Source of the DNA: Planctomycetaceae bacterium
Lineage (GTDB): Bacteria; Planctomycetota; Planctomycetia; Pirellulales; UBA1268
Direction: 5' to 3'
DNA length: 42,065 nt
NCBI GenBank assembly: GCA_947481985.1
Contig: CANKIK010000023.1
Span: forward strand, 1 to 42,065
Positions 2,288 through 39,346 of the stretch are shown one piece after another (positions within the stretch are counted from its first letter, which is position 1; each line of letters opens with the position of its first letter). The position numbers and the translations under genes are program-made. The notes below the pieces were generated by a model, which had not been told where the DNA came from, did not search any database, and worked only from the letters and a program-made list of their open reading frames with translations.

Positions 2288-2835
2288 CGTGATTTCCTCC
2301 AAAGGGATGGGGAGAATACCACGGCGGCCCTCCAGGGATACAACCACTCCCGCTGCAGTCCATGACCAGAGGGAGCAGAGGGGGCAGAAGCACGTCTTGT
2401 GCCGACACCAAACCGATTCGTCTGATCTGCTTGCCGGATCGGCTTTTGCGCGCAATCCGTGGAATCTGCTGCGGTCGCTTTGTCGGAGCGCGGTATACTT
2501 GGGGCGTCGCCGAGTCGTGGCCGAAAAAAGCCGCGAACGGGGGAACCAAACCAGTGTGGTCGATTGCTGTTGCGAAGCGGCGGCCACACCCGGGGCGTAG
2601 GTTCAGAAATGAACCAGGGTACTTTCAAGCCCGAGCCCGTCAGCTAACCCCGTAGGCATGGTCGGACGCGGTGTCCGGCCCGATTTGAAAGGGCATTCTT
2701 TCGCTCCCTCGCAGGAGCGCGAAGGCCCTGGGTTTGCTACGGGCGTCGTTCCTCCCGGTGGCCATCGTGCGCCCCCGCCTGAGCCTCCGACGCCGGAGGG
2801 CTTGTGACGTGTCTTTCCAAAGTCCCCTGACGGGG

Positions 2836-5115
2836 ATGCTCTGTTTCGCGGTCCATCCCACTGACCTTGCGGTTCTCTGGCCAAGGTCACTCCCACTGGC
2901 GGCGCTTCCCCAGATCGTCACTGCCTGGTGGCCCGCCTGGATCCTCACCGCGATCGCTGTGCTTTTCTGGATCTGCTTCCGCTGGATTCCCAACGACCGG
3001 ATCGGCGTGGTGGAGAAGTGGTGGTCGCTTGCCGGCAGCGTGACGGAAGGACGGATCGTCGCCCCGGCCGCCGAGGCAGGCTACCGGGCGGAGATCCTCC
3101 GCGGTGGCCTTCACTTCGGCTGGTGGCGGTGGCAGTACGCCATCCACACCGTGCCCTTAGTAAGTATCCCCGAGGGGAAGATTGGCTATGTGTTTGCCCG
3201 TGACGGCGAGCCGCTGCCCGCCAGCCAAACGCTCGCCCGGGTGGTCGACTGCAACAACTTCCAGGATGCCCGCGGCTTCCTCGGGCTCGCCCCGGCCGCC
3301 GGTGCCACCATCCCAGCCCGGATCGCCGCCGGGCAGAAGGGGCGCCAGCGGGCCATCCTCCGCGAGGGTGTGTATGCGATCAACCCGGCGCTGTTCACAG
3401 TCGTCAGTGAAAACGCCGTCTTTGGGCTGAAGGCCGTGCAGACCCGGGCGGAACAGGAGTCGCTCGGTCGCTGGCTCGCCGAACTCCGTGCCGCCTCTGG
3501 CTTCGACCCCGTCGTCGTCGGCAAGGGAACCGCCGTAGCGAGTATTCCTGATCACGATTCGCTCGCCACAGTCGCCATCACGGAGGAGGCCCCTGCCGAC
3601 TCGATCGCCATTATCACAGTCCATGATGGTCCGTCGCTGTCGCCGGGCGAGATCATCGCGCCGACCGTCGGCGGCGATCTGGCCGATCCGAACTACCACA
3701 ACAACTACCAAGACACCGAGGCCTTTCTCCGTGCCGGAGGCCGCCGTGGCCGGCAGCACATGCCCCTCACCGACGGCACCTACTTTGTGAACCGCTGGTT
3801 CGCGACGGTGGAGATGACGCCGAAGACGGTCGTGCCGATCGGCTCAGTGGGCGTGGTGGTCAGTTACATCGGCCGCACGGGCGCCGACATCTCCGGATCG
3901 GCCTTCCGCCACGGCGAGCGGGTGGCCGAAGGGGAGCGGGGCGTGTGGGAGCGGGCCCTCGGCCCGGGCAAGTACGCCTTCAACAGCTACTCCGGCAACG
4001 TCGTTCTCGTGCCGACGACCAACTTCGTCCTCCACTGGGTGACCGGTCGGAGCGAGTCGCACCGCTACGACGAGAGCCTGAAGAGCATCGATCTGGTGAC
4101 GAAAGACGCCTACGAGCCGTCGCTCCCCCTCTCGGTGGTCGTGCACATCGACTACCAACGGGCCCCGAGCGTCATCCAGCGGTTCGGGGATGTCCAGCGG
4201 CTGATCACGCAGACTCTCGATCCGATGCTCTCTGCCTACTTCCGCGATATCGCCCACAAGAAAACGATGCTCGAACTCCTCCACGACCGCGACCTGATCC
4301 AGGCCGAGGCGCGAAAAGAGCTGCATACAAAATTTCAGCAGTTCGACATCGAGTGCGTCGACGTCCTCATCGGTAAGCCGGAGACTGGCAAAGAATCAGG
4401 CAAGATTGAGACGCTGCTTGACCAGCTCCGCGAGCGGCAGCTCTCCGTCGAGCAACTTGAGACCTTCGAGCGGAAGCGCGTGGCTGCGGAGAAGATGCGT
4501 TTGCTGGCCGAGGCACAGGCCCTGGCGACGATGCAGACGCAGCTCACCAACGCCCGTGTCGAGGCCCAGATCGCCGAGCAGCAGGGGGAGGCCGACCTCT
4601 TCCGGGCCCGGAAATCAGCCGAGCAGATGGTGGTCATGGCCGAGGCCGATCTGTCGCGATCGCGCCTCCAGGCGGAACAGCGCGTGCTTCTGGCCGAGGC
4701 TGATGCGAAGCAGAAAGAACTCGAGGGGCGTGGCGAGGGGCAGAAGGTGATGCACATCGGCCTCAGCGAGGCCGCCGTGCAACTCAAAAAGATCTCCAGC
4801 TACGGCGACCCGCGACTCTACGCCCTCGCCGAGGTAGCCGGCAGCCTGTCGGCGAGCGTGCAACCGCTGGTGCCGCAGCGGCTCTTTATCTCCGGCGGCG
4901 GGGATGGCAAGGGCGAACAGGCCTCCGGTCAGGGGATGCTCGGCCTGCTTGTCAGTCTCCTCGTGGCCGAGAAGAGCGGCCTGGGAGGGATTGGGATCGA
5001 CGAGGCCGATCCGCTCAAACGCTTCGCCGACCGGATGTCGGAGAAGGTGCTCGAATCGATGGAGCAGGCGGAGGGACACGACACACGGCCGGCGGATCCG
5101 CCGGTCGGGGCGTGA
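2836..5115 (+). CDS. flotillin-family (SPFH/band-7, YqiK-like) membrane protein
   Basis: N-terminal TM helix (WPAWILTAIAVLFWICF) followed by an SPFH core (IPNDRIGVVEKW..). Long EA-rich coiled coil typical of flotillins (AEAQALATMQTQLTNARVEAQIAEQQGEADL..AEADLSRSRLQAEQRVLLAEADAKQKELEG). First canonical ATG is 2836; the track ORF begins at TTG 2734. Confidence 0.85.
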   Translation: MLCFAVHPTDLAVLWPRSLPLAALPQIVTAWWPAWILTAIAVLFWICFRWIPNDRIGVVEKWWSLAGSVTEGRIVAPAAEAGYRAEILRGGLHFGWWRWQYAIHTVPLVSIPEGKIGYVFARDGEPLPASQTLARVVDCNNFQDARGFLGLAPAAGATIPARIAAGQKGRQRAILREGVYAINPALFTVVSENAVFGLKAVQTRAEQESLGRWLAELRAASGFDPVVVGKGTAVASIPDHDSLATVAITEEAPADSIAIITVHDGPSLSPGEIIAPTVGGDLADPNYHNNYQDTEAFLRAGGRRGRQHMPLTDGTYFVNRWFATVEMTPKTVVPIGSVGVVVSYIGRTGADISGSAFRHGERVAEGERGVWERALGPGKYAFNSYSGNVVLVPTTNFVLHWVTGRSESHRYDESLKSIDLVTKDAYEPSLPLSVVVHIDYQRAPSVIQRFGDVQRLITQTLDPMLSAYFRDIAHKKTMLELLHDRDLIQAEARKELHTKFQQFDIECVDVLIGKPETGKESGKIETLLDQLRERQLSVEQLETFERKRVAAEKMRLLAEAQALATMQTQLTNARVEAQIAEQQGEADLFRARKSAEQMVVMAEADLSRSRLQAEQRVLLAEADAKQKELEGRGEGQKVMHIGLSEAAVQLKKISSYGDPRLYALAEVAGSLSASVQPLVPQRLFISGGGDGKGEQASGQGMLGLLVSLLVAEKSGLGGIGIDEADPLKRFADRMSEKVLESMEQAEGHDTRPADPPVGA

Positions 5116-5353: not shown

Positions 5354-7378
5354 GTGAGTTGTCATCGCAGAGGCCGGTGGATCGCAATCGCAGCGTTGTG
5401 GATGGCTGGCGCGGCCGGATGGAGTGGCCCACGGGGCTTGCAGGCTCAGGCCCCTGTTTTGCAGCCGTTGACCGGGGAGCAGCGCCAGTCGCTTGAAGAC
5501 GGCTTGCGGGCATTAAACCTTTCGCTTGAACCTGCCCAGGGGCCAGTCCCCCAGGATCGCGCCGACGCAGCGATCTTCGCCAAGGGCCTGACGTGGGCGC
5601 TGCGGTATGACGCTGAATTCTCCGCCGCAGAAGTAACGCAACTCAATCAGGCGCTGAAGCGCGGCAGCGAGCGATTGGCAGCCCTCGTCGACGGCCGGCG
5701 CCCCTGGGCCGAGCGACGCGGAAAAATAGTCCTGGGGTATGTCTCGCGCATCGACGGCTCCCTGCAGCCGTACGGTCTCATCGTGCCGAAAACCTACGAC
5801 CCGCAGAACGCGATGCGGCTCGATGTCGTGTTGCACGGGAGTACCCGCCCCGTCGGCTCCAGCGAGTTGAACTTCATGGCCCGTTTCGATGAAGGGGACG
5901 AGCCGAATGCGCATCCGCCTGACGTCTCATGGATCGAACTCCATCCACTCGGCCGGGTCGAAAACTGCTATCGCTGGTCGGGCGAGAGTGACGTCTTTGC
6001 AGCCATCGAAGACGTCGCTCGTCGCTACCACATCGATCGCGATCGGATCGTCCTCCGTGGCATGTCGATGGGAGCTTCGGGAACGTGGCATCTCGGCCTC
6101 AAGCACCCGGATCAGTTCGTGGCGCTCGGGCCGTATTGCGGGTATGTCGACACGCATCGGTTCTCCGAAACACCGATCCCCTCGTTTATCAAGGTTGGCC
6201 CCTTGCCGGAGCATGAGGAACTTGGCCTGCACATCCTCGACTCCGTCGACTATGCCGCCAACGCCAGCGTCGTTCCGGCCATCGCATGCATGGGGGACCA
6301 GGATGTCTTCTTTCAGGCTCACGTGCTGATGGAAGAGGCGCTGCGGCGCGAGGGACTGGAGATGATCAACCTGATCGCGCCGGGAACAGGCCATGTCATC
6401 GATCCCGCCACGCATGCCGAGCAGATGCGGCAAATCGGCGCGCACGCCGATCGCGGCCTGAACCACTCCCCAAGGGAGTTGCGGTTTGTCACCTGGACTT
6501 TGAAATATGGCCGCTGCCATTGGCTCCAAGTGCTCAGTCTCGATCGCCATTACGCCAGAGCGGAATTCGCTGCCCGAGTGCGTGGCGACAGCCTTGAGGT
6601 CGCCGAACCGCTGAATATCAATCGATTTTCCATCGATGTCGCCAAGCTGCCCCGGACGGTGGAGACCATCCGGATCGGAGCCACTGCGCTCGCACTTCCC
6701 CTCTCCGGAGTGCCGCCACGCAGCCCGCTTGTTTTTTTTCGGCATCAACAGGCGTGGAGCATTGCCGGCGATGATTCGGTCCCGAAAGCGGGCAAACGCC
6801 CCGGGCTCCAGGGCCCGATCGACGATGCATTCACCGCGCCGTTCCTCTGCGTGCGCGGAACTGGAACACCCTGGAACCAGGCCGTGCACGAGCACGCCAT
6901 CAACAGCTTGAATCGATTTGCCGATGAGTGGCACCGCTACTTTCGCGGCGACCTGCCGATCAAGGACGACTCGGCGGTGACCGCAGAGGATCTCCAGACC
7001 AAGAACCTGATTCTCTTCGGCGATCCGGGGAGCAATGTGTTGATCGCAAGCGCCCTGCCTCGGCTTCCGATGGAGTGGACGAGACAGACCCTCCGATTGG
7101 GAGGACAGGACCACCCGGCTGCCAACCACATGCCCGCACTGATTGCCCCCAATCCACTGCCCGGCGCAGCGGAGCATTACGTTGTCATCAACAGCGGCCA
7201 CACCTTCCGCGGGGCAGATCTGGGCGCCTTGAACTACCTCCTCTTCCCGCGCTGGGGCGACTGGGCCGTGATCCAAGTCCCCGCTGCCCACCCCGCCGAA
7301 GAACCGCTCCCGGACCAGGTCTTGGATGCCGGATACTTCAACGAGCAATGGCAAGGCACGTTGGGGACCGCCCCCTAA
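5354..7378 (+). CDS. secreted alpha/beta-hydrolase-fold serine hydrolase (esterase/peptidase-like) with large C-terminal extension
   Basis: GTG start with signal-peptide-like N-terminus (RRGRWIAIAALWMAGAAGW..AQA). GxSxG nucleophile motif GMSMGASGTW, with LDVVLHGS upstream. Ends at TAA 7376-7378. The 669-aa minus-strand ORF 5927-7936 is its antisense shadow. Confidence 0.7.
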   Translation: MSCHRRGRWIAIAALWMAGAAGWSGPRGLQAQAPVLQPLTGEQRQSLEDGLRALNLSLEPAQGPVPQDRADAAIFAKGLTWALRYDAEFSAAEVTQLNQALKRGSERLAALVDGRRPWAERRGKIVLGYVSRIDGSLQPYGLIVPKTYDPQNAMRLDVVLHGSTRPVGSSELNFMARFDEGDEPNAHPPDVSWIELHPLGRVENCYRWSGESDVFAAIEDVARRYHIDRDRIVLRGMSMGASGTWHLGLKHPDQFVALGPYCGYVDTHRFSETPIPSFIKVGPLPEHEELGLHILDSVDYAANASVVPAIACMGDQDVFFQAHVLMEEALRREGLEMINLIAPGTGHVIDPATHAEQMRQIGAHADRGLNHSPRELRFVTWTLKYGRCHWLQVLSLDRHYARAEFAARVRGDSLEVAEPLNINRFSIDVAKLPRTVETIRIGATALALPLSGVPPRSPLVFFRHQQAWSIAGDDSVPKAGKRPGLQGPIDDAFTAPFLCVRGTGTPWNQAVHEHAINSLNRFADEWHRYFRGDLPIKDDSAVTAEDLQTKNLILFGDPGSNVLIASALPRLPMEWTRQTLRLGGQDHPAANHMPALIAPNPLPGAAEHYVVINSGHTFRGADLGALNYLLFPRWGDWAVIQVPAAHPAEEPLPDQVLDAGYFNEQWQGTLGTAP

Positions 7379-7475
7379 CAGCCCGTGGAAAAAGTCATCC
7401 ATGACCTTTTTCCACTTGAAAAACCTCCGGTTTTCTCGAGTGCTACGCACTCGCGACTGCCTCGTGCAGTCGGAT
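7379..7475 (+). other. conserved multi-hairpin 3' element, copy 1 (candidate structured RNA / complex terminator)
   Basis: AT-rich island in a high-GC region, starting 8 nt after the TAA. Hairpins: TGGAAAAAGTCATCC/ATGACCTTTTTCCA (7386-7414); CACTTGAAAAACC-TCC-GGTTTTCTCGAGTG (7415-7444); CGACTGC-CTCGT-GCAGTCG (7454-7472). About 82% identical over 97 nt, no indels, to the reverse complement of 26221-26317. Confidence 0.6.
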
Positions 7476-7582
7476 CGGCAGTTTATCCACGGCCCCCTAA
7501 CCGGCGACAGCACCGGGCCGCTCACCGGGATCGTTGCCTGACAACAGCCTTTCAGGGCCGAAGCATCCTCTGGGGAACTGAT

Positions 7583-8041
7583 CATGCTCGCGAAGCACTG
7601 GTTGCTGGTAGTGGTGATGCACGGCACGACCTCGTTCGCCGAGGCTTCGACTGCCGACTCGAGGGCATCGTCTGGACGACCGGCGAGAACGATGCCTTCT
7701 TTGGCCCCTTCGCCCAGCACCATGCTGCGACGTTCCAAGCGCTTGTCGAACAGACGCGAATCGACCTGAAACAACCGCAACTGCCTTGGGTGATTGCCGC
7801 ACTGCACAGGAACGCGCCGTGGGGAAACGGAAGCGCGGTCAACGCCGGACTTACGCAACGTGCGCGGACACTTTCTGGCATCGAGGTGGTGGAGACATCG
7901 CAACTCCCCTACCTTCGCGCCCAGTACGGCACCCACGGCACACTCCTCCTCGGAGAGAAACTCGCCGCTGCATTCCTGCCTTCCCTGCAGCCAGCCCTTG
8001 CGCCTGCAAAACCAGAGAGCCAGTCAACCGGGGAAAGATGA
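7583..8041 (+). pseudogene. truncated sialate-O-acetylesterase-like SGNH hydrolase (DUF303/SASA family), C-terminal part only
   Basis: Frame-2 translation carries the C-terminal SASA-family blocks: LEGIVWTTGENDA (cf. WYQGESD), QPQLPWVIAAL (cf. QPELPF..QL), GTHGTLLLGEKLAAAF (cf. D..H....G...LG.RLA). The N-terminal GQSNM block is absent in all frames. There is no ATG/GTG/TTG in frame between 7560 and 7690. The frame is the same as the upstream hydrolase, separated by a single TAA and the hairpin element. Confidence 0.5.
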
Positions 8042-18615: not shown

Positions 18616-18870
18616 CGCCAGCGAGGCCGCTCTCTGGCAGAGTCGTCAGCAGCGCCACGCGTCGTCGGGAGCGAAGGCCCGGACAGGGGGCACCTTCACC
18701 CTCCACCACGACAACCTCCCCATCCCTGCCGCCATCCCGCTCTTTTGGGAAGAATTCTCCAGGCACGCTCCACACACCGGCTCAAGCGGTCCTCCCGTTG
18801 CACTGCAGGGCCGGCGGACGAAAAATTGCAGGCTCCCCCCTCCCCCACACGCTCCCTCCGGAACCGACCA

Positions 18871-20280
18871 ATGGCTACTCCCTCCACCCGCACCGAGACC
18901 GACAGCATGGGGGCCGTCGAGGTCGCCTCCGACCGCTACTGGGGCGCCCAGACGGAGCGTTCCCGAGACAACTTTAAAATCGGCCTCGATCGCTTCGAGT
19001 GGGGCCGGGCGGTGAAGAAGGCCCTCGGGATCCTCAAGAAATCGGCGGCGCTTGCCAACGGTGAGCTCGGGCAGATCCCCGCCGAGCGGGTGCGGCTCAT
19101 CGTCCAGGCGGCCGACGAGGTGATCGCCGGGAAACTCGACGACCACTTTCCGCTGGTGGTCTTCCAAACCGGCAGCGGTACACAGTCGAACATGAACGCC
19201 AACGAGGTGATCTCCAATCGCGCTATCGAGATCGCTGGCGGTGTGATGGGGTCGAAGTCACCGGTCCACCCCAACGACGACGTCAACCGCGGCCAGTCGT
19301 CCAACGACACCTTCCCCACTGCCATGCACATCGCCGCCGTCGAGGTGATCCACGATCGCCTCCTGCCGGCGGTGCGGTCACTCCGAGACGTGTTTGCTGA
19401 CCTCTCCCAGCGGACGGCGAGCGTCGTCAAGATCGGCCGCACCCACCTCCAGGATGCGACCCCAATCACCCTCGGCCAGGAGATCTCGGCCTGGCAATCC
19501 CAACTCGACGACCGGATCGCCTCCATCGAACGGTCACTGCCCGGCCTCTATGAACTGGCAATCGGCGGCACGGCCGTCGGCACCGGGCTCAACGCCCACG
19601 CGAAGTTTGGCGACGTCGCGGCGAAGTTCATTGCCAGAGAGACCGGCCACCCCTTCGTCTCGGCGAAGAACAAGTTTGCTGCCCTCTCAGCCCACGATGC
19701 CCTCGTTGATGCAAGCGCCGCCGAGCGCAGTCTGGCGATGGCGCTGCTGAAGATCGCCAATGACATCCGCTGGCTGGCCTCCGGGCCACGCTGCGGGATC
19801 GGCGAGATCTCGATCCCAGAGAACGAACCGGGCAGCTCGATCATGCCGGGCAAGGTCAACCCCACGCAGTGCGAGGCGATGACGATGGTCTGCGTCCAGG
19901 TGTTCGGCAACGACGCCGCAGTGGCCTTCGCCGGCTCACAGGGCAACTTCCAACTCAACGTCTACAAGCCGGTGATGATCCACAACGTGCTGGAGTCGGC
20001 CGACCTCATGGCCGACGCCTGCGACTCGATGCGGATTCACTGTGCGGTCGGCATCCAGCCGAACCTCGCCCGCATCCGCCACAACCTCGACGAGTCGCTG
20101 ATGCTCGTCACCGCCCTCAACACCCACATCGGCTACGAGAAGTCGGCGAAGATCGCGAAGAAGGCCCATCAGGAGGGGACGAGCCTCAAGGCAGCCGCCG
20201 TCGCCTCGGGGCACGTTACGGCAGAGCAGTACGACCAGTGGGTTGTCCCGGCAGAGATGACCCGGCCGCTGTCGACGTGA
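18871..20280 (+). CDS. fumC: class II fumarate hydratase
   Basis: Start [18 protein letters not shown] at ATG 18871. Fumarase/aspartase signature [20 protein letters not shown]. 469 aa. Confidence 0.93.
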
Positions 20281-20298
20281 TGGCCCTCTGGTCGACGG

Positions 20299-20362
20299 CC
20301 AGACGCAACCGCCAGACGCAACCGCCAGACGCAACCGCCAGACGCAACCGCCAGACACCCCG
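20299..20362. repeat. 13-bp tandem repeat CCAGACGCAACCG, 4 full copies plus a partial
   Basis: Read directly at 20299-20311, 20312-20324, 20325-20337, 20338-20350, then ccagacaccccg. Begins 19 nt after the fumC stop. Confidence 0.85.
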
Positions 20363-26186: not shown

Positions 26187-26220
26187 AAACTGGATTTTCC
26201 CGGCTGCGGTTCACCAACTG

Positions 26221-26317
26221 CCTCGACCGCACGAGGCGGTCGCGCGAGCAAAGCACTGGAAAAAACCGGCGGATTCTCCAGTGAAAAAAGGTCAGGGATG
26301 ACTTTCTCCACGGACAA
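26221..26317 (-). other. conserved multi-hairpin 3' element, copy 2 (candidate structured RNA / complex terminator)
   Basis: Reverse complement of 26221-26317 aligns without gaps to 7379-7475, with 10-mer blocks at 9/10, 9/10, 9/10, 7/10, 8/10, 8/10, 7/10, 9/10. It begins 7 nt after the stop (tag, plus 26318-26320) of the minus-strand PSCyt1-WD40 gene, in the same orientation. Compensatory changes: GACTGC/GCAGTC becomes GACCGC/GCGGTC, and CACTTGA/TCGAGTG becomes CACTGGA/TCCAGTG. Confidence 0.6.
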
Positions 26318-29068
26318 CTAGGGCTGGGAAGCCGCGGGCACAATCCCCTGGAGGGCGAGGAGTTCGCGAACAACCGCCTCAACCTCGGCCTGCTTCGCCG
26401 CCGCCAGAGCCTCCGCCGTGGCGGCCACCGACGCCGCCCCCTCGACCACCTGCGCCGCTTCGGCGAGGGGGCCGTCCATCTCGGCCACGGCAGCCACCAG
26501 CGCCGGCATCTCACCTTTGCGCTTCTCCATCATCGCCACGCTGTCGGCAGCCGCCTTCTCCCAGGTAGCCCGCTCAGCCGCCATTGCGTCCATCCCTTCC
26601 CGCATCCCCTTCACCTGTGCCGCCTTGGCCGCCAGCGTGTCGATGAGGACCTTATGGGCGGCGGCGAGCTCCGCGTCGCCTGCCGCGAGATCGAGCGCGG
26701 CCTTCGTCTGGGACGCCGCCTGCTCGAGGATGCTCGAGGCTTTCGTGATGATCTCAATCGTTCCCTGCTGGGCCAGCAGTTCCTGCTGGCGTTTGGCGAT
26801 CTTCTCCAGCAGCCCGGCATGCTCGCCGGCAGCAGCGGCAAGCGCGGAAGAGAGTTCCTCCACGGCCTTTACGCGCACTGACTTTTGGGCCTCGATCCCC
26901 CGACGGGCCTGTTCATCCCCAGACAACTTTCCGCGGGCCTCGGCCACACTCGCTTCGACCTGGCGGACGACCTGCTCGCGGGCGGAAACCGCCCCCGAGA
27001 GTTCGGTGTACTTCTGCATGAACGCCGCTTCACCCTGCCAGCGGGCCAGTTCGGCCTGCGCTCGATCGAGCTCGGCAGACAGTTCCACCACCTTGGTGGC
27101 AGCCACTGCAGCGCTGGCCTTGAGGGCCTCAAGCCCGGGCGTCATCTCGGCCACCTTCGCCGCCATCTGGTCGGCAGAGAGCTGCGCTTGATCGCGTTGC
27201 AGGGTCGATTGTGCGAGTTGCTTCTCGCTCGCGGCCATCCGATCAGCCGAGGCCGCCAACTCGATTTCCCTGGCGGCGATCGCCTCCCGCTGCAGCCTGA
27301 GCTTCTCGGCTACCTCTGCCAGCGTGTTCTTGGCGGCCTCGTCTGCGGGGTTCTGGGCCACTACAGACAGCGCCTGGGCGTGAGACTCCAGGGCCGGTGC
27401 GAGGTCACGGGCCGCCGCGACGGCCGCATCGGTGGCGGTCACATAGGCCGAAGCGGATTCGGTCTTCACAACCAGGGCGGCGTCAAATCCTTTCTGCATC
27501 TCCGCCAAGGTCCCGTCGGCAGAGGTCTTGGCCTGCACCACCCCGTCAAAGGCCTGCTGCATCCCGGCCAACTGCCCGGCAACCTCGGCAGCCACCGCTC
27601 TGGCCGGGTCCACCGCCGGGGAACGCTCCAGCACAGCCTTCTCGGCAGCCGCGATTCGCACCGCAATCGGCTCCGGATTAGACGACAGTCCGCCGGCACG
27701 GGTGGCATCTGCGGCCTTCCAGACGCGGATCTCACCGGTCCAGTCACCGACGATCACCGCATCGGTCTCATCACAGAACGATACTGCCAGACCGAGATCG
27801 GTACAGGGCTCAAACGCCTTCTGCTGAGTGCCATCCTGGGCCCACAACTTCGGCTGTTTGTCGCGGCCGATGCTGACAATCCGTCCGTCTCGGGTGAACT
27901 CGACTCCCGCCACACCGCCGGCGTGCGCGTTCCAATTCTTGACCTGTCCGCCATTCTCCATCTCCCAGAGGCGGATCGTGCCATCCTCACTCCCCGTGGC
28001 AAGGAGGTTGGAGTCGCCGCGCCAAGAGACCGCCGTGATCCCGGCGGTATGGCCGGCGAGAGTCAGGTAATCGCGGCCGGTCTGCGACTCCCACACCATC
28101 ACCCCGCCGTTGCGATCGCCCGTCGCCAGGAGCACTCCGTCAGGACTGAACGAGGCGGCCGTGACCCAGTCCGTATGCTTCTTCATCTCGTAGAGACGTT
28201 CCCCCGTCTCCGTCGAGTAGATCCGCACCACCCGCTGCGGCCCACCCAATGCCACGAAGCGGTGATCGGCACTGATGTCGGCGGCCAAGACCGTGTCGAG
28301 CTCGTCGCCGATCTCCATCACCCGTCGCCCGCTCGCCACGCTCCACACCACGACCTTCCCGGCGGCGCCCCCCCGACCGCCACCGGCGAGCACGAGGCTG
28401 CCGTTGCGGCTGAACTGCAGCACCTGCGGCCGCCCCTCAGGGAAGGGGAGCACGCCGGCGAGCTGCTGGGTGTCGGTGCGGTACAGCAGGACCTGTTTCT
28501 GTCCGCACACGGCTGCCAACGGAGCCCAGGGACTGGTGGCGATCGAGGTGCAAGCGCTGAGGCTGCGGGTGTGGACCGCCGGTTCCAACGGAAGATGTGC
28601 CGGGAGAGGGACAACCTGCGGCCGTTCAGTCGGCGCGGCGTCCATGGCAAGGTTGAATTTCTTTTTCTTCGGTGCCGCCGCCTTGCTCCCCCGGGTCTCG
28701 AGCACACCCCCATCGATCCATCTTTTCAACACGGCCCGCTCCTCCTCCGGGATCGGCGGGGAGTCTGGCGGCATCTTCGGCTCATCCTCTTGGGTGACGA
28801 GCTTGTAGAGATAACTGGCAGACGAATCGCCCGGCTCGATCGAACCACCCGATCCCCCTCCCGCCATCAAGCCGGTGTAGGTGGTGATGTCGAGGCCGCC
28901 GGCCTTCTTGTCAGGATTGTGGCAACTCCCGCACCGCTGCCGGAGCAGCGGGAGCACGTTGTCGTCGAACGTGACTGCCTCATCGGCAGCCATGGCACGA
29001 GCCGTCGGCAGGCCGACTGCCCAAAGCGTCGCCCAAAGCGTCGCCAACAGGATCCGTGTGGTGCTCAT
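26318..29068 (-). CDS. secreted PSCyt1 (planctomycete cytochrome-c-like) domain, WD40-repeat and long coiled-coil fusion protein
   Basis: ATG 29066-29068. Signal peptide MSTTRILLATLWATLWAVGLPTARA. PSCyt1-type block FDDNVLPLLRQRCGSCHNPDKKAGGLDI. WD40 repeats (LLATGDRNGGVMVWES, LLATGSEDGTIRLWEM). C-terminal ~450-aa Ala/Glu/Gln-rich coiled coil. Confidence 0.85.
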   Translation of the reverse strand: MSTTRILLATLWATLWAVGLPTARAMAADEAVTFDDNVLPLLRQRCGSCHNPDKKAGGLDITTYTGLMAGGGSGGSIEPGDSSASYLYKLVTQEDEPKMPPDSPPIPEEERAVLKRWIDGGVLETRGSKAAAPKKKKFNLAMDAAPTERPQVVPLPAHLPLEPAVHTRSLSACTSIATSPWAPLAAVCGQKQVLLYRTDTQQLAGVLPFPEGRPQVLQFSRNGSLVLAGGGRGGAAGKVVVWSVASGRRVMEIGDELDTVLAADISADHRFVALGGPQRVVRIYSTETGERLYEMKKHTDWVTAASFSPDGVLLATGDRNGGVMVWESQTGRDYLTLAGHTAGITAVSWRGDSNLLATGSEDGTIRLWEMENGGQVKNWNAHAGGVAGVEFTRDGRIVSIGRDKQPKLWAQDGTQQKAFEPCTDLGLAVSFCDETDAVIVGDWTGEIRVWKAADATRAGGLSSNPEPIAVRIAAAEKAVLERSPAVDPARAVAAEVAGQLAGMQQAFDGVVQAKTSADGTLAEMQKGFDAALVVKTESASAYVTATDAAVAAARDLAPALESHAQALSVVAQNPADEAAKNTLAEVAEKLRLQREAIAAREIELAASADRMAASEKQLAQSTLQRDQAQLSADQMAAKVAEMTPGLEALKASAAVAATKVVELSAELDRAQAELARWQGEAAFMQKYTELSGAVSAREQVVRQVEASVAEARGKLSGDEQARRGIEAQKSVRVKAVEELSSALAAAAGEHAGLLEKIAKRQQELLAQQGTIEIITKASSILEQAASQTKAALDLAAGDAELAAAHKVLIDTLAAKAAQVKGMREGMDAMAAERATWEKAAADSVAMMEKRKGEMPALVAAVAEMDGPLAEAAQVVEGAASVAATAEALAAAKQAEVEAVVRELLALQGIVPAASQP

Positions 29069-38455: not shown

Positions 38456-39346
38456 GTGCGGATCGGCCCCACTCTGATCGTCGACACCTTCGCCGAGGCT
38501 TTCCGCCTCCGGTACGCCAGGCTGATCGTCACCGCCCACGATTTCCACTGGCTGGAAGCGGCCCTGCGGGCGGCATGCGGCTACGGCACGAGCGTCCTGG
38601 GATGCGATGCCGAGGTCGGCATCGAGGCCAAAATCCCCCCCGCCTCGTCGCCCGACGGCCGTCCGGGGGCGGCAGTTCTCGCCTTCTCTTTCGCCGCTGA
38701 AGGCCTGGCAAAAGCGATCGGCAACCGCACCGCTCAGTGCCTCCTCACCTGTCCGACGGCCAGCGTCTTTGACGGCCTCCCTGAAGCCGAGGAACGCGCC
38801 CCGCTCGGCAGCCACGTTCGCTTTTTTGGCGATGGTTTCGAGAAATCGAAAGTCATCGACGGCCGTCGGTACTGGCGGGTGCCGGTGATGGATGGGGAAT
38901 TCCTCGTCGAAGAGACCTGCGGCATCGCCAAGGGTGTCGGCGGTGGCAACATCATCCTCCAAGGCGGATCGCTCGCGGGGACGCTGGCAGCCGTGCGCCG
39001 GGCTGTGGGAGCGATCGAGGCCCTGCCGGGGGTGATCGCCCCGTTTCCCGGGGGAGCGGTACGGTCGGGGAGCAAGGTGGGGTCCCGCTACCAGGGCTTG
39101 CGGGGCTCTACCAACGAGGCTTTCTGCCCCGGCCTCATCGGCCGCGTCGAGTCGGAACTCGTCAGCGGTACGGCCTGCGCCGTGGAAATCGTCATCGATG
39201 GCAGCGACGAGGAACGCGTGGCGGCGGCGATGGCAGCCGCCATGCAGGCGGCCGCCGGGCCAGAACTGCTGGCGATCTCGGCCGGCAACTACGGTGGCAA
39301 GCTGGGCAAGTTCCACTTCCATCTCCGCCCTTTGATCGCCGGTTGA
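38456..39346 (+). CDS. ftr: formylmethanofuran--tetrahydromethanopterin N-formyltransferase (Ftr / FhcD-type)
   Basis: Family blocks DTFAEAF, CDAEVGIE, SPDGRPG, QCLLTCPTASVFDG, RFFGDGFE, GRRYWRVPVMDGEF, GGN, PGVIAPFPGGAVRSGSKVGSRY, STNEAFCP, EIVIDGSDEE, ISAGNYGGKLGKFHFHL. Start chosen at GTG 38456 (GGGAG 5 nt upstream). This puts DTFAEAF at residue 10 and gives 296 aa, as in archaeal Ftr. The track ATG 38393 has a 1-nt SD spacer. Confidence 0.85.
   Translation: MRIGPTLIVDTFAEAFRLRYARLIVTAHDFHWLEAALRAACGYGTSVLGCDAEVGIEAKIPPASSPDGRPGAAVLAFSFAAEGLAKAIGNRTAQCLLTCPTASVFDGLPEAEERAPLGSHVRFFGDGFEKSKVIDGRRYWRVPVMDGEFLVEETCGIAKGVGGGNIILQGGSLAGTLAAVRRAVGAIEALPGVIAPFPGGAVRSGSKVGSRYQGLRGSTNEAFCPGLIGRVESELVSGTACAVEIVIDGSDEERVAAAMAAAMQAAAGPELLAISAGNYGGKLGKFHFHLRPLIAG

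Follow-up and report, generated by a model that had tools for sequence, protein, structure and literature searches.

A probable MITE-like family of palindromic elements with CTAG ends located at gene stop codons in Planctomycetes

The Correia elements of Neisseria, together with RUP and ERIC, are palindromic, 100-150 bp long, inverted at their ends and accompanied by a short duplication that contains TA, the Correia target being TA. These repeats are gene-adjacent and co-transcribed, and they form long hairpins able to affect mRNA processing or termination; Correia elements additionally contain promoter and IHF sites. Among the other short extragenic palindromes, the GTAG-tagged REPs supply TAG stop codons to the ORFs that flank them (Di Nocera et al. 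2013, PMC3733652), and the planctomycete R. baltica is reported to contain REP and RAYT systems (PMC3733652). The insertion sequence IS5 is reported to duplicate CTAG (PMC10379815). Here we describe two related segments in a 42,065-nt stretch of DNA from a Planctomycetaceae bacterium (contig CANKIK010000023.1; this whole stretch is referred to as the window), and we propose, with a probability of roughly three in four, that both are copies of a non-autonomous, non-coding mobile DNA element of the MITE type, about 126 bp long and with a G+C content below that of its host.

The longest repeat in the window aligns positions 7373-7472 (plus strand) with 26224-26323 (minus strand) over 100 nt at 81% identity with zero indels, in agreement with the ungapped alignment described in a first-pass annotation of this DNA. 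The two segments share a 21-nt core (AAAGTCATCCNTGACCTTTTT) that occurs twice in the window, against zero occurrences expected from shuffled sequences. The extent of about 97 nt originally given to the repeat is too short, as alignment of the wider family shows a unit of about 126 nt. The features of the two copies and of the genes that adjoin them are as follows.

5354..7378, plus strand: host gene at copy 1, Peptidase_S9 / alpha-beta hydrolase (Pfam)
7375..7500, plus strand: copy 1, full element of subfamily A, 126 nt, delimited by the family alignment and boundaries
7375..7378, plus strand: putative left target-site duplication of copy 1, CTAA, with TAA (7376-7378) serving as stop codon for the S9-peptidase-like ORF 5354..7378
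7379..7394, plus strand: left terminal inverted repeat of copy 1, CAGCCCGTGGAAAAAG (family consensus CTGTCCGTGGAAAAAG)
7385..7415, plus strand: hairpin H1 of copy 1, GTGGAAAAAGTCA-TCCA-TGA(C)CTTTTTCCAC, a 13-bp stem with a single bulged C
7413..7442, plus strand: long hairpin H2 of copy 1, CACTTGA...TCGAGTG, with an inner stem at 7420-7434 (AAAACC/GGTTTT); subfamily A only
7437..7453, plus strand: competing hairpin of copy 1, CGAGTGC-TAC-GCACTCG, seen in the MFE fold
7454..7472, plus strand: hairpin H3 of copy 1 (H4 in the first-pass annotation), CGACTGC-CTCGT-GCAGTCG
7480..7496, plus strand: right terminal inverted repeat of copy 1, AGTTTATCCACGGCCCC (family consensus ACTTTATCCACAGCCTG)
7497..7500, plus strand: putative right target-site duplication of copy 1, CTAA
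24978..26186, plus strand: convergent ribD (deaminase and RibD_C domains), with its stop codon 9 nt from the right end of copy 2
26196..26321, minus strand: copy 2, full element with a degenerate 3' end, 126 nt
26318..26321, minus strand: left terminal tetramer of copy 2, CTAG, with TAG serving as stop codon for ORF 26318..29068
26281..26311, minus strand: hairpin H1 of copy 2, GTGGAGAAAGTCA-TCCC-TGACCTTTTTTCAC, with two G.T pairs
26224..26242, minus strand: hairpin H3 of copy 2, CGACCGC-CTCGT-GCGGTCG
26196..26209, minus strand: decayed right end of copy 2, CCGCAGCCGGGAAA (consensus CCACAGCCTGCTAG); the right duplication is not recognisable
26318..29068, minus strand: host gene at copy 2, PSCyt1 and WD40 (Pfam)

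Copy 1 is matched by the family profile at 7376-7498 (nhmmer, E = 1.5e-23), has a G+C content of 0.53 compared with 0.66 for the window, and folds with a z-score of -6.6. It is bounded by CTAA on both sides, and its ends (CAGCCCGTGGA and TCCACGGCCCC) agree as inverted repeats at 12 of 17 positions. Copy 2 is matched at 26321-26200 (E = 5e-19) and takes up nearly all of the 131-nt gap between the convergent WD40/PSCyt1 and ribD genes. Both copies abut stop codons and are co-oriented with the upstream gene, as had been noted, with the refinement that the element in fact starts on the stop codon itself (CTAA at 7375-7378 and CTAG at 26321-26318). The hairpins previously called H1, H2 and H4 are all present, as is the competing CGAGUGC-UAC-GCACUCG hairpin in the MFE fold of copy 1, and the pair-preserving differences between the copies are real: an H3 pair is T-A in copy 1, whereas copy 2 and the subfamily consensus both have C-G and locus L007 a one-sided C.A intermediate, and a T.G pair in the long H2 stem corresponds to G-C. 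A profile search (nhmmer) reveals no third copy in the 42-kb window, and an end-like match at position 39179 lies inside coding sequence and is attributed to chance.

The description of the repeat as a two-copy element is true of the window only. The family was sampled by one scan of species-representative genomes for the exact 21-nt core, the counts being lower bounds, and this identifies at least 101 stretches with the core in other genomes. Among the matches listed, nearly all are from freshwater Planctomycete MAGs (Pirellulales, Planctomycetaceae), and four MAGs contain at least 13, 8, 8 and 8 exact-core copies, respectively, in unrelated contexts. Several of the carrier MAGs are deposited as 'Kuenenia' or 'Chitinophaga', yet have about 68% G+C and planctomycete genes. 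About 18 of the listed matches are cut by true contig ends or lie within about 120 nt of them, a clustering that is accounted for by the tendency of a multi-copy repeat to break short-read assemblies. When 851 kb of fetched loci were searched with the family profile (nhmmer) 122 matches were found, and 54 of the 77 copies that could be delimited are 126-127 nt long with sharp boundaries; other lengths include 51-, 60- and 170-nt forms. The elements are without coding capacity and have a G+C content of 0.57 compared with 0.68 for the fetched loci, and decayed copies drifting towards host composition are seen in L006 (downstream of 2892), L036 (at 876) and L012 (at 6559).

The family has a common layout consisting of CTAG, CTGTCC, the H1 hairpin (GTGGAAAAAGTCA-TCCA-TGA(C)CTTTTTCCAC), one to three internal palindromes, CACTTTATCCACAGCCTG, and a closing CTAG. 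The consensus terminal inverted repeats are CTGTCCGTGGAAAAAG at the left and CTTTATCCACAGCCTG at the right, and 13 of 17 positions are shared between the consensus CTGTCCGTGGAAAAAGT and the reverse-complemented 3' end, CAGGCTGTGGATAAAGT. The left inverted repeat is directly adjoined by its own inverted copy, forming H1, and the internal palindromic modules vary among subfamilies. Minimal 51-nt forms in L009 and L044 consist of the two ends only, placed back to back; L025 contains the 60-nt form, and L060, L012, L006 and L047 contain tandem copies with one common CTAG. The 170-nt relative is present in Thermodesulfobacteriota and 'Deltaproteobacteria' MAGs, and its modules other than H1 are unrelated. 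The H1 core with its bulged C is identical in all members including the Thermodesulfobacteriota relatives, an invariance that is imposed by the exact-core scan.

The terminal tetramers have the consensus CTAG (39 copies) or CTAA (10 copies), with GTAG in two, and were compared pairwise in 73 elements, with expectations obtained by permutation. The left and right tetramers are the same in 30 of the 73 (15.3 expected; p < 5e-5), and there are seven identical pairs other than CTAG (1.7 expected; p = 0.0007), these being CTCA, CTGA, CTAA (three, including window copy 1), CTCG and CTGT. There are no inverted matches between non-palindromic end tetramers in these 73 elements. Position 4 of the tetramer (G or A) is concordant between the ends (Fisher p = 1e-6), and positions 3 and 4 co-vary between them; position 1 never does, and the duplication could therefore be of 3 bp and not 4 bp. 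From these statistics, and not from the reading of an empty allele, we conclude that the end tetramers represent a target-site duplication of CTAG/CTAR. The assemblies include no filled/empty pair at high nucleotide identity, and BLAST with joined flanks among the loci gives no spanning match, so that the duplication is inferred statistically and not seen as such. An apparent 155-nt difference at L109 is a scaffold gap of Ns and not an insertion. Two other types of duplication were set aside: a 2-bp TA duplication at CTAG as in IS630/Tc1, because position 4 co-varies between the ends, and a 6-bp NCTAGN duplication as in IS481, because a constant C follows the left CTAG and a variable base follows the right one. 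The first-pass annotation had stated that there are no terminal inverted repeats or target duplications, which is contradicted by the inverted ends and flanking CTAA sequences of copy 1 and by the family, in which both features are clear. It had further concluded that the repeat is not a REP or MITE, and as to the MITE this is wrong, given the inverted ends, the CTAG/CTAR duplications, the 51-nt forms and the CTAG-sharing tandems.

Both copies in the window differ in their occurrence from the corresponding loci of related species. Copy 2 is absent in all of L102-L107: it is missing from the syntenic loci (PSD1 gene, WD40 gene and convergent ribD) of relatives at 82%, 80% and 74% protein identity, and also from a fourth relative (L106/L107, 63% identity) in which the upstream PSD1 gene is kept and another set of genes replaces ribD downstream of the WD40 orthologue. 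The element-free WD40 orthologues at 82% and 80% identity have the same Gln-Pro codons followed by TGA and then by unrelated spacers of 51-86 nt. Copy 1 is absent from the two closest relatives (L115 and L116, 74% aa identity), in which the host orthologue ends with QWQAP followed by TGA. Within species the copies examined are fixed, and are present in all seven assemblies of the window's species and in all four of the species represented by L084. Apart from an autonomous partner, all of the MITE features tested are present in the family, namely small size (below about 300-500 bp), inverted ends, duplication (on statistical grounds), dispersal, and presence/absence between species.

The association with stop codons extends beyond the window. 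We scored a stop contact where a GC3-rich open frame, 80 or more codons long, finishes precisely on a terminal tetramer, and found 24 copies with a stop exactly on the left tetramer and 10 with a stop exactly on the right tetramer, from a gene on the opposite strand. At L084 two convergent genes end on one element, with a stop codon at each terminus. The excess of left over right contacts (24/96 versus 10/66) is not significant (Fisher p = 0.17), and hence pointing with the gene is not a rule for the element. In four copies (L011, L050, L077 and L098, of which L050 and L098 are orthologous) the frame is shifted and continues for nine codons inside the element, as far as the TGA of the H1 loop, such that the gene gains a nine-residue tail, PAARGKSHP for example. 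Outside of the elements there are 91 CTAG sites in 648 kb, 12 of which are gene stops. Many copies sit exactly on stop codons because C-TAG and C-TAA are often gene ends, and insertions at C-TAG stops are tolerated because the duplicated target keeps the stop codon. The CTAA and CTGA left ends are explicable in the same way, since the path from TAG to TAA to TGA passes through functional stops.

An alternative explanation is that the repeats are a functional structured RNA, such as a complex terminator, a 3'-UTR stabiliser or sRNA, or a riboregulator, that is selected at gene ends in gene orientation. This was the interpretation offered in the first-pass annotation, of which the dispersed multi-hairpin family, the stop-codon association and the pair-preserving changes all stand, and the dedicated structured RNA is not supported; we consider it very unlikely. 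Both window copies are co-oriented with the abutting gene and copy 1 folds strongly, pair-preserving differences occur between subfamilies as well as between the window copies, and there is the modest excess of stop contacts at the left end, all of which would be consistent with an RNA. However, that excess is within the range of chance and ten genes terminate at the other end of the element, sister species have the orthologous genes without it, and copies decay and lose their stems in place. Substitutions breaking the stems in additional copies had been named in advance as evidence against an RNA, and these are seen both in the decayed copies and in a within-species comparison in which two substitutions in L120 disrupt H1 and H2 pairs. 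The more stable fold is that of the reverse complement in 53 of 75 distinct elements and that of the forward strand in 18, with mean fold energies of -57.0 and -54.5 kcal/mol respectively, and in 46 distinct H2 stems there are 32 A.C mismatches versus 16 G.T, an A.C mismatch being a G.U pair on the other strand; the earlier argument that the G.U pairs are permissible only in the gene-sense orientation is not supported by either comparison. The pattern of an intrinsic terminator (a G+C-rich stem followed by a U tract) gives one weak match per copy, located inside H1 in copy 1 and inside H2 in copy 2, a yield no greater than that of shuffled sequences. Searches of Rfam 15 with both window copies at the gathering threshold, and by E-value around copy 1, give no match, and the best score for the other subfamilies tested is to Ms_IGR-8, with 28 bits against a threshold of 44. 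Because the reverse strand folds better, A.C outnumbers G.T, the terminator matches are weak, Rfam matches are lacking and the L120 stems are broken, we see no evidence of per-copy selection as RNA; transcript-level effects on host genes are possible. A further alternative, that the two segments are similar by chance or through a local duplication or inversion without a wider family, draws on there being only two copies in the 42-kb window, and is refuted by the zero core matches expected in shuffles and the more than 100 copies elsewhere in unrelated contexts, leaving it a negligible probability.

The folded structures themselves have features that raise a different possibility. RNAalifold across all subfamilies recovers H1 alone because the internal modules are not column-homologous, and H2 was therefore analysed sequence by sequence. 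The 15-bp H2 stems are nearly perfect and quite different between subfamilies, and the H2 loop GCC(G/A)AGG is conserved above stems that differ at about half of their positions (chance P about 0.01). The sequence CATCC is displayed in the loops of both H1 and H3. These conserved loops, together with an H1 whose bulged stem is shared across phyla, are more than a simple deletion-derived MITE would require. They suggest that a protein may read the folded hairpins, and they keep alive the idea of a REP/REPIN-like element whose movement or maintenance depends on a single-strand HUH tyrosine transposase (RAYT or 'TIRYT') that would recognize the folded H1 next to the CTAG tag. Such an element would fit with an H1 whose palindrome is imperfect, whose bulge and loop are invariant, and which is positioned 6 nt from a conserved tetranucleotide and kept across two phyla, with the CATCC and GCCGAGG loops kept over varying stems, with the occurrence of clusters and tandems, and with the TAG stops supplied by GTAG-tagged REPs and the presence of REP and RAYT systems in R. 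baltica (PMC3733652). However, the tag is CTAG rather than GTAG, the tetramers at the two ends vary together as direct repeats and never match as inverted ones, as expected of a target duplication and unlike the GTAG...CTAC of REP dimers, the unit has a constant size of 126-127 nt and terminates in inverted repeats, and an unsystematic look through the fetched loci revealed no copy-flanked tyrosine-transposase gene; we regard this explanation as unlikely. It seems similarly doubtful that the repeats are a CTAG-tagged, hairpin-guided element handled as folded single-stranded DNA by an HUH-type or other enzyme, or a 3'-end RNA module recruited by the host, with homing to stop codons in either case; such readings are suggested by the invariant bulged H1 in two phyla, the recurrence of CATCC in loops, and a GCCGAGG loop that is kept while its stems co-vary freely.

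We also looked for an element that could mobilize the MITE-type repeats. Searches for lone ends or inverted end pairs 0.7-3 kb apart revealed no autonomous element with the same ends in about 650 kb of loci, and a metagenome scan for the right end without a preceding hairpin gave one chance match inside a CDS. No match was found when the E. coli IS5, IS30 and IS1 transposases were compared (phmmer) with 1,050 ORFs of the loci, and clustering of the neighbouring ORFs in search of a recurrent partner gave only large planctomycete families. BLAST of the consensus against plasmids gave nothing, and a scan of viral contigs had no matches. The ends of E. coli IS5 (GGAAGGTGCGAA...), which was the one set of IS5-family ends compared, are unrelated to those of the element. 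An integron attC site was discarded on inspection, since neither GTTRRRY / RYYYAAC core sites nor a cassette array are present.

The repeats are best described as a new MITE-like family, probably of IS5 type with a CTAG duplication, and we found no earlier description of it in the searchable literature. The element is inserted at the very rare CTAG, or less often at CTAA, which is present as a direct repeat on both sides. In the mechanism that we envisage, a transposase acting in trans would move it by way of a staggered cut of 4 bp (possibly 3 bp), like that of the IS5 group, and insertions inside coding sequence would be removed by selection. Only those source copies with intact palindromes would keep transposing, which may be the origin of the pair-preserving differences, as opposed to selection acting on each insert. 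Copies would be co-transcribed with the upstream gene and would probably fold at the 3' end of the mRNA, any effect on termination or stability being a by-product.

The family is a new one of an ordinary kind of element and not a dedicated regulatory RNA, and its stop-codon habit is explicable. It accounts for a recurrent, strongly folding gene-end sequence in abundant freshwater Planctomycetes that would otherwise be liable to annotation as an RNA gene or terminator, and, with many copies at contig ends, it accounts in part for the fragmentation of MAGs. A rare palindromic target, CTAG, that overlaps TAG stops guides a mobile element precisely to gene ends, where the last codons are sometimes rewritten. 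The family also provides a handy marker for strain typing, and a test case for the upkeep of palindromic modules with conserved loops in non-coding mobile DNA.

Comparison with described systems shows several partial similarities. As with intrinsic terminators, the hairpins lie just 3' of stop codons, and copy 2 lies between convergent genes, but the element is without a G+C-rich stem and directly following U tract, and both orientations occur. The palindromic unit size, inverted ends and gene-adjacent placement are similar to those of Correia, RUP and ERIC, although exact overlap with stop codons is much more prominent here; the sequence, host phylum and target differ from those of Correia, and its promoter and IHF sites are not seen. 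The GTAG REPs and REPINs with their RAYTs (PMC3733652; Bertels and Rainey 2011) are likewise extragenic palindromes with a TAG-containing terminal tetranucleotide that is often the stop of a neighbouring ORF; single copies, dimers and clusters all occur, and Planctomycetes are among the hosts. In contrast to these, the element described here is tagged with CTAG (39 copies, versus two with GTAG), has end tags that are direct and not inverted, is a 126-nt unit of three or four hairpins as compared with one 20-40-nt hairpin, and had no associated RAYT noticed in our unsystematic look at the fetched loci. The IS5-group MITEs, with their 4-bp target duplication of CTAG/YTAR, are alike in being small, non-coding and multi-copy, with inverted ends, direct CTAG/CTAA repeats, ends-only minimal forms, and a presence that varies between related species. 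They are unlike it in that no parent IS or transposase was identified here and the ends do not resemble those of E. coli IS5; moreover, the left end with its own inverted copy forms a 13-bp bulged hairpin, and palindromes with conserved loops follow one another through the interior.

CTAG is an extremely rare tetranucleotide in these genomes, and the termini of the ~126-nt palindromic element account for most of its occurrences in the window and in the Planctomycete loci with an exact match to the core of H1, the bulged hairpin at the element's left end (L001-L101). Outside the elements there are 91 CTAG sites in the 648 kb that these loci and the window comprise, which by rough arithmetic is a ~20-fold depletion relative to the expectation from base composition.

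The elements at L032 2511-2638 and L089 5312-5437 are orthologous insertions whose flanks share 80-90% identity, but they fall into different or hybrid subfamilies. This mismatch suggests that the same CTAG was hit more than once or that copies have undergone conversion. At L072 55-296 a single element is split after H1 by an expanded minisatellite (many repeats of CACTCGCTTC), beyond which the remainder of the element continues. At L017 (~220-330) the H1 core lies immediately 3' of the end of a tRNA-like sequence (GGTTCGAGTCCTGCCGGGCGTAC) and is enclosed by a larger stem, CTTCACGC...GCGTGAAG; the usual element ends are missing. This occurrence is possibly a solo hairpin, or else a relative that has diverged.

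The sister-species loci orthologous to the copy 1 site (L115 and L116) lack the element but differ from one another. L115 (4517-4815) contains an additional AT-rich segment of ~250 nt, 3' of the S9-peptidase gene, that is missing from L116 (4517-4564); it carries the inverted repeats TTAATCTGTGGA ... TCCACAGATTAA, and is probably a small mobile element different from the CTAG element family. The gene downstream of copy 1 in the window, ORF 7385..8041, has no counterpart at the orthologous position in the sister species. It may be a 5'-truncated gene, and its SASA match corresponds to the C-terminal half only (profile positions 118-225 of 226). This match and two features located away from the element are:

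7585-8041, plus strand: partial SASA carbohydrate-esterase domain inside ORF 7385..8041 (E = 2.8e-11)
2498-2673, plus strand: aptamer of a c-di-AMP riboswitch (ydaO/yuaA type), matching the Rfam model over its full length at 66.8 bits (gathering score 38)
20295-20359, plus strand: tandem array of ~5 copies of the 13-nt unit ACCGCCAGACGCA

A 793-aa ORF (2734..5115) begins shortly downstream of the aptamer, and the stop codon of ORF 18745..20280 immediately precedes the tandem array.

In the last ~50 nt of the L019 contig, read on the reverse strand, the sequence immediately after H1 is CTGTCTCTTATACACATCTGACGCTGCCGACGA, a Nextera/Tn5 adapter and thus sequencing-adapter contamination at a contig end of a deposited MAG. 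The organism names look wrong for a group of MAGs that carry the element. They were submitted under the names 'uncultured Chitinophaga sp.' and 'Candidatus Kuenenia stuttgartiensis', but their G+C content is ~68% and they contain genes typical of the Pirellulales type (PSCyt/PSD1, DUF1552). The misnamed-looking MAGs form two sets:

Set 1, CAZMOU01: L006-L013, L047, L084, L096, L099
Set 2, CAMARC01, CALQRA01 and CAMCCR01: L007, L009, L017, L032, L036, L040, L041 and others

A 170-nt relative of the element, with the end sequences CAGGATGTTGAAAAAG and CAACGGCCTG, is found in Thermodesulfobacteriota / 'Deltaproteobacteria' MAGs (L029, L037, L038, L063, L071 and L074), the L029 version being shorter at 103 nt. 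It has the H1 core and CTAR ends in common with the Planctomycete element, but the other internal hairpins differ and its right end itself forms a hairpin.
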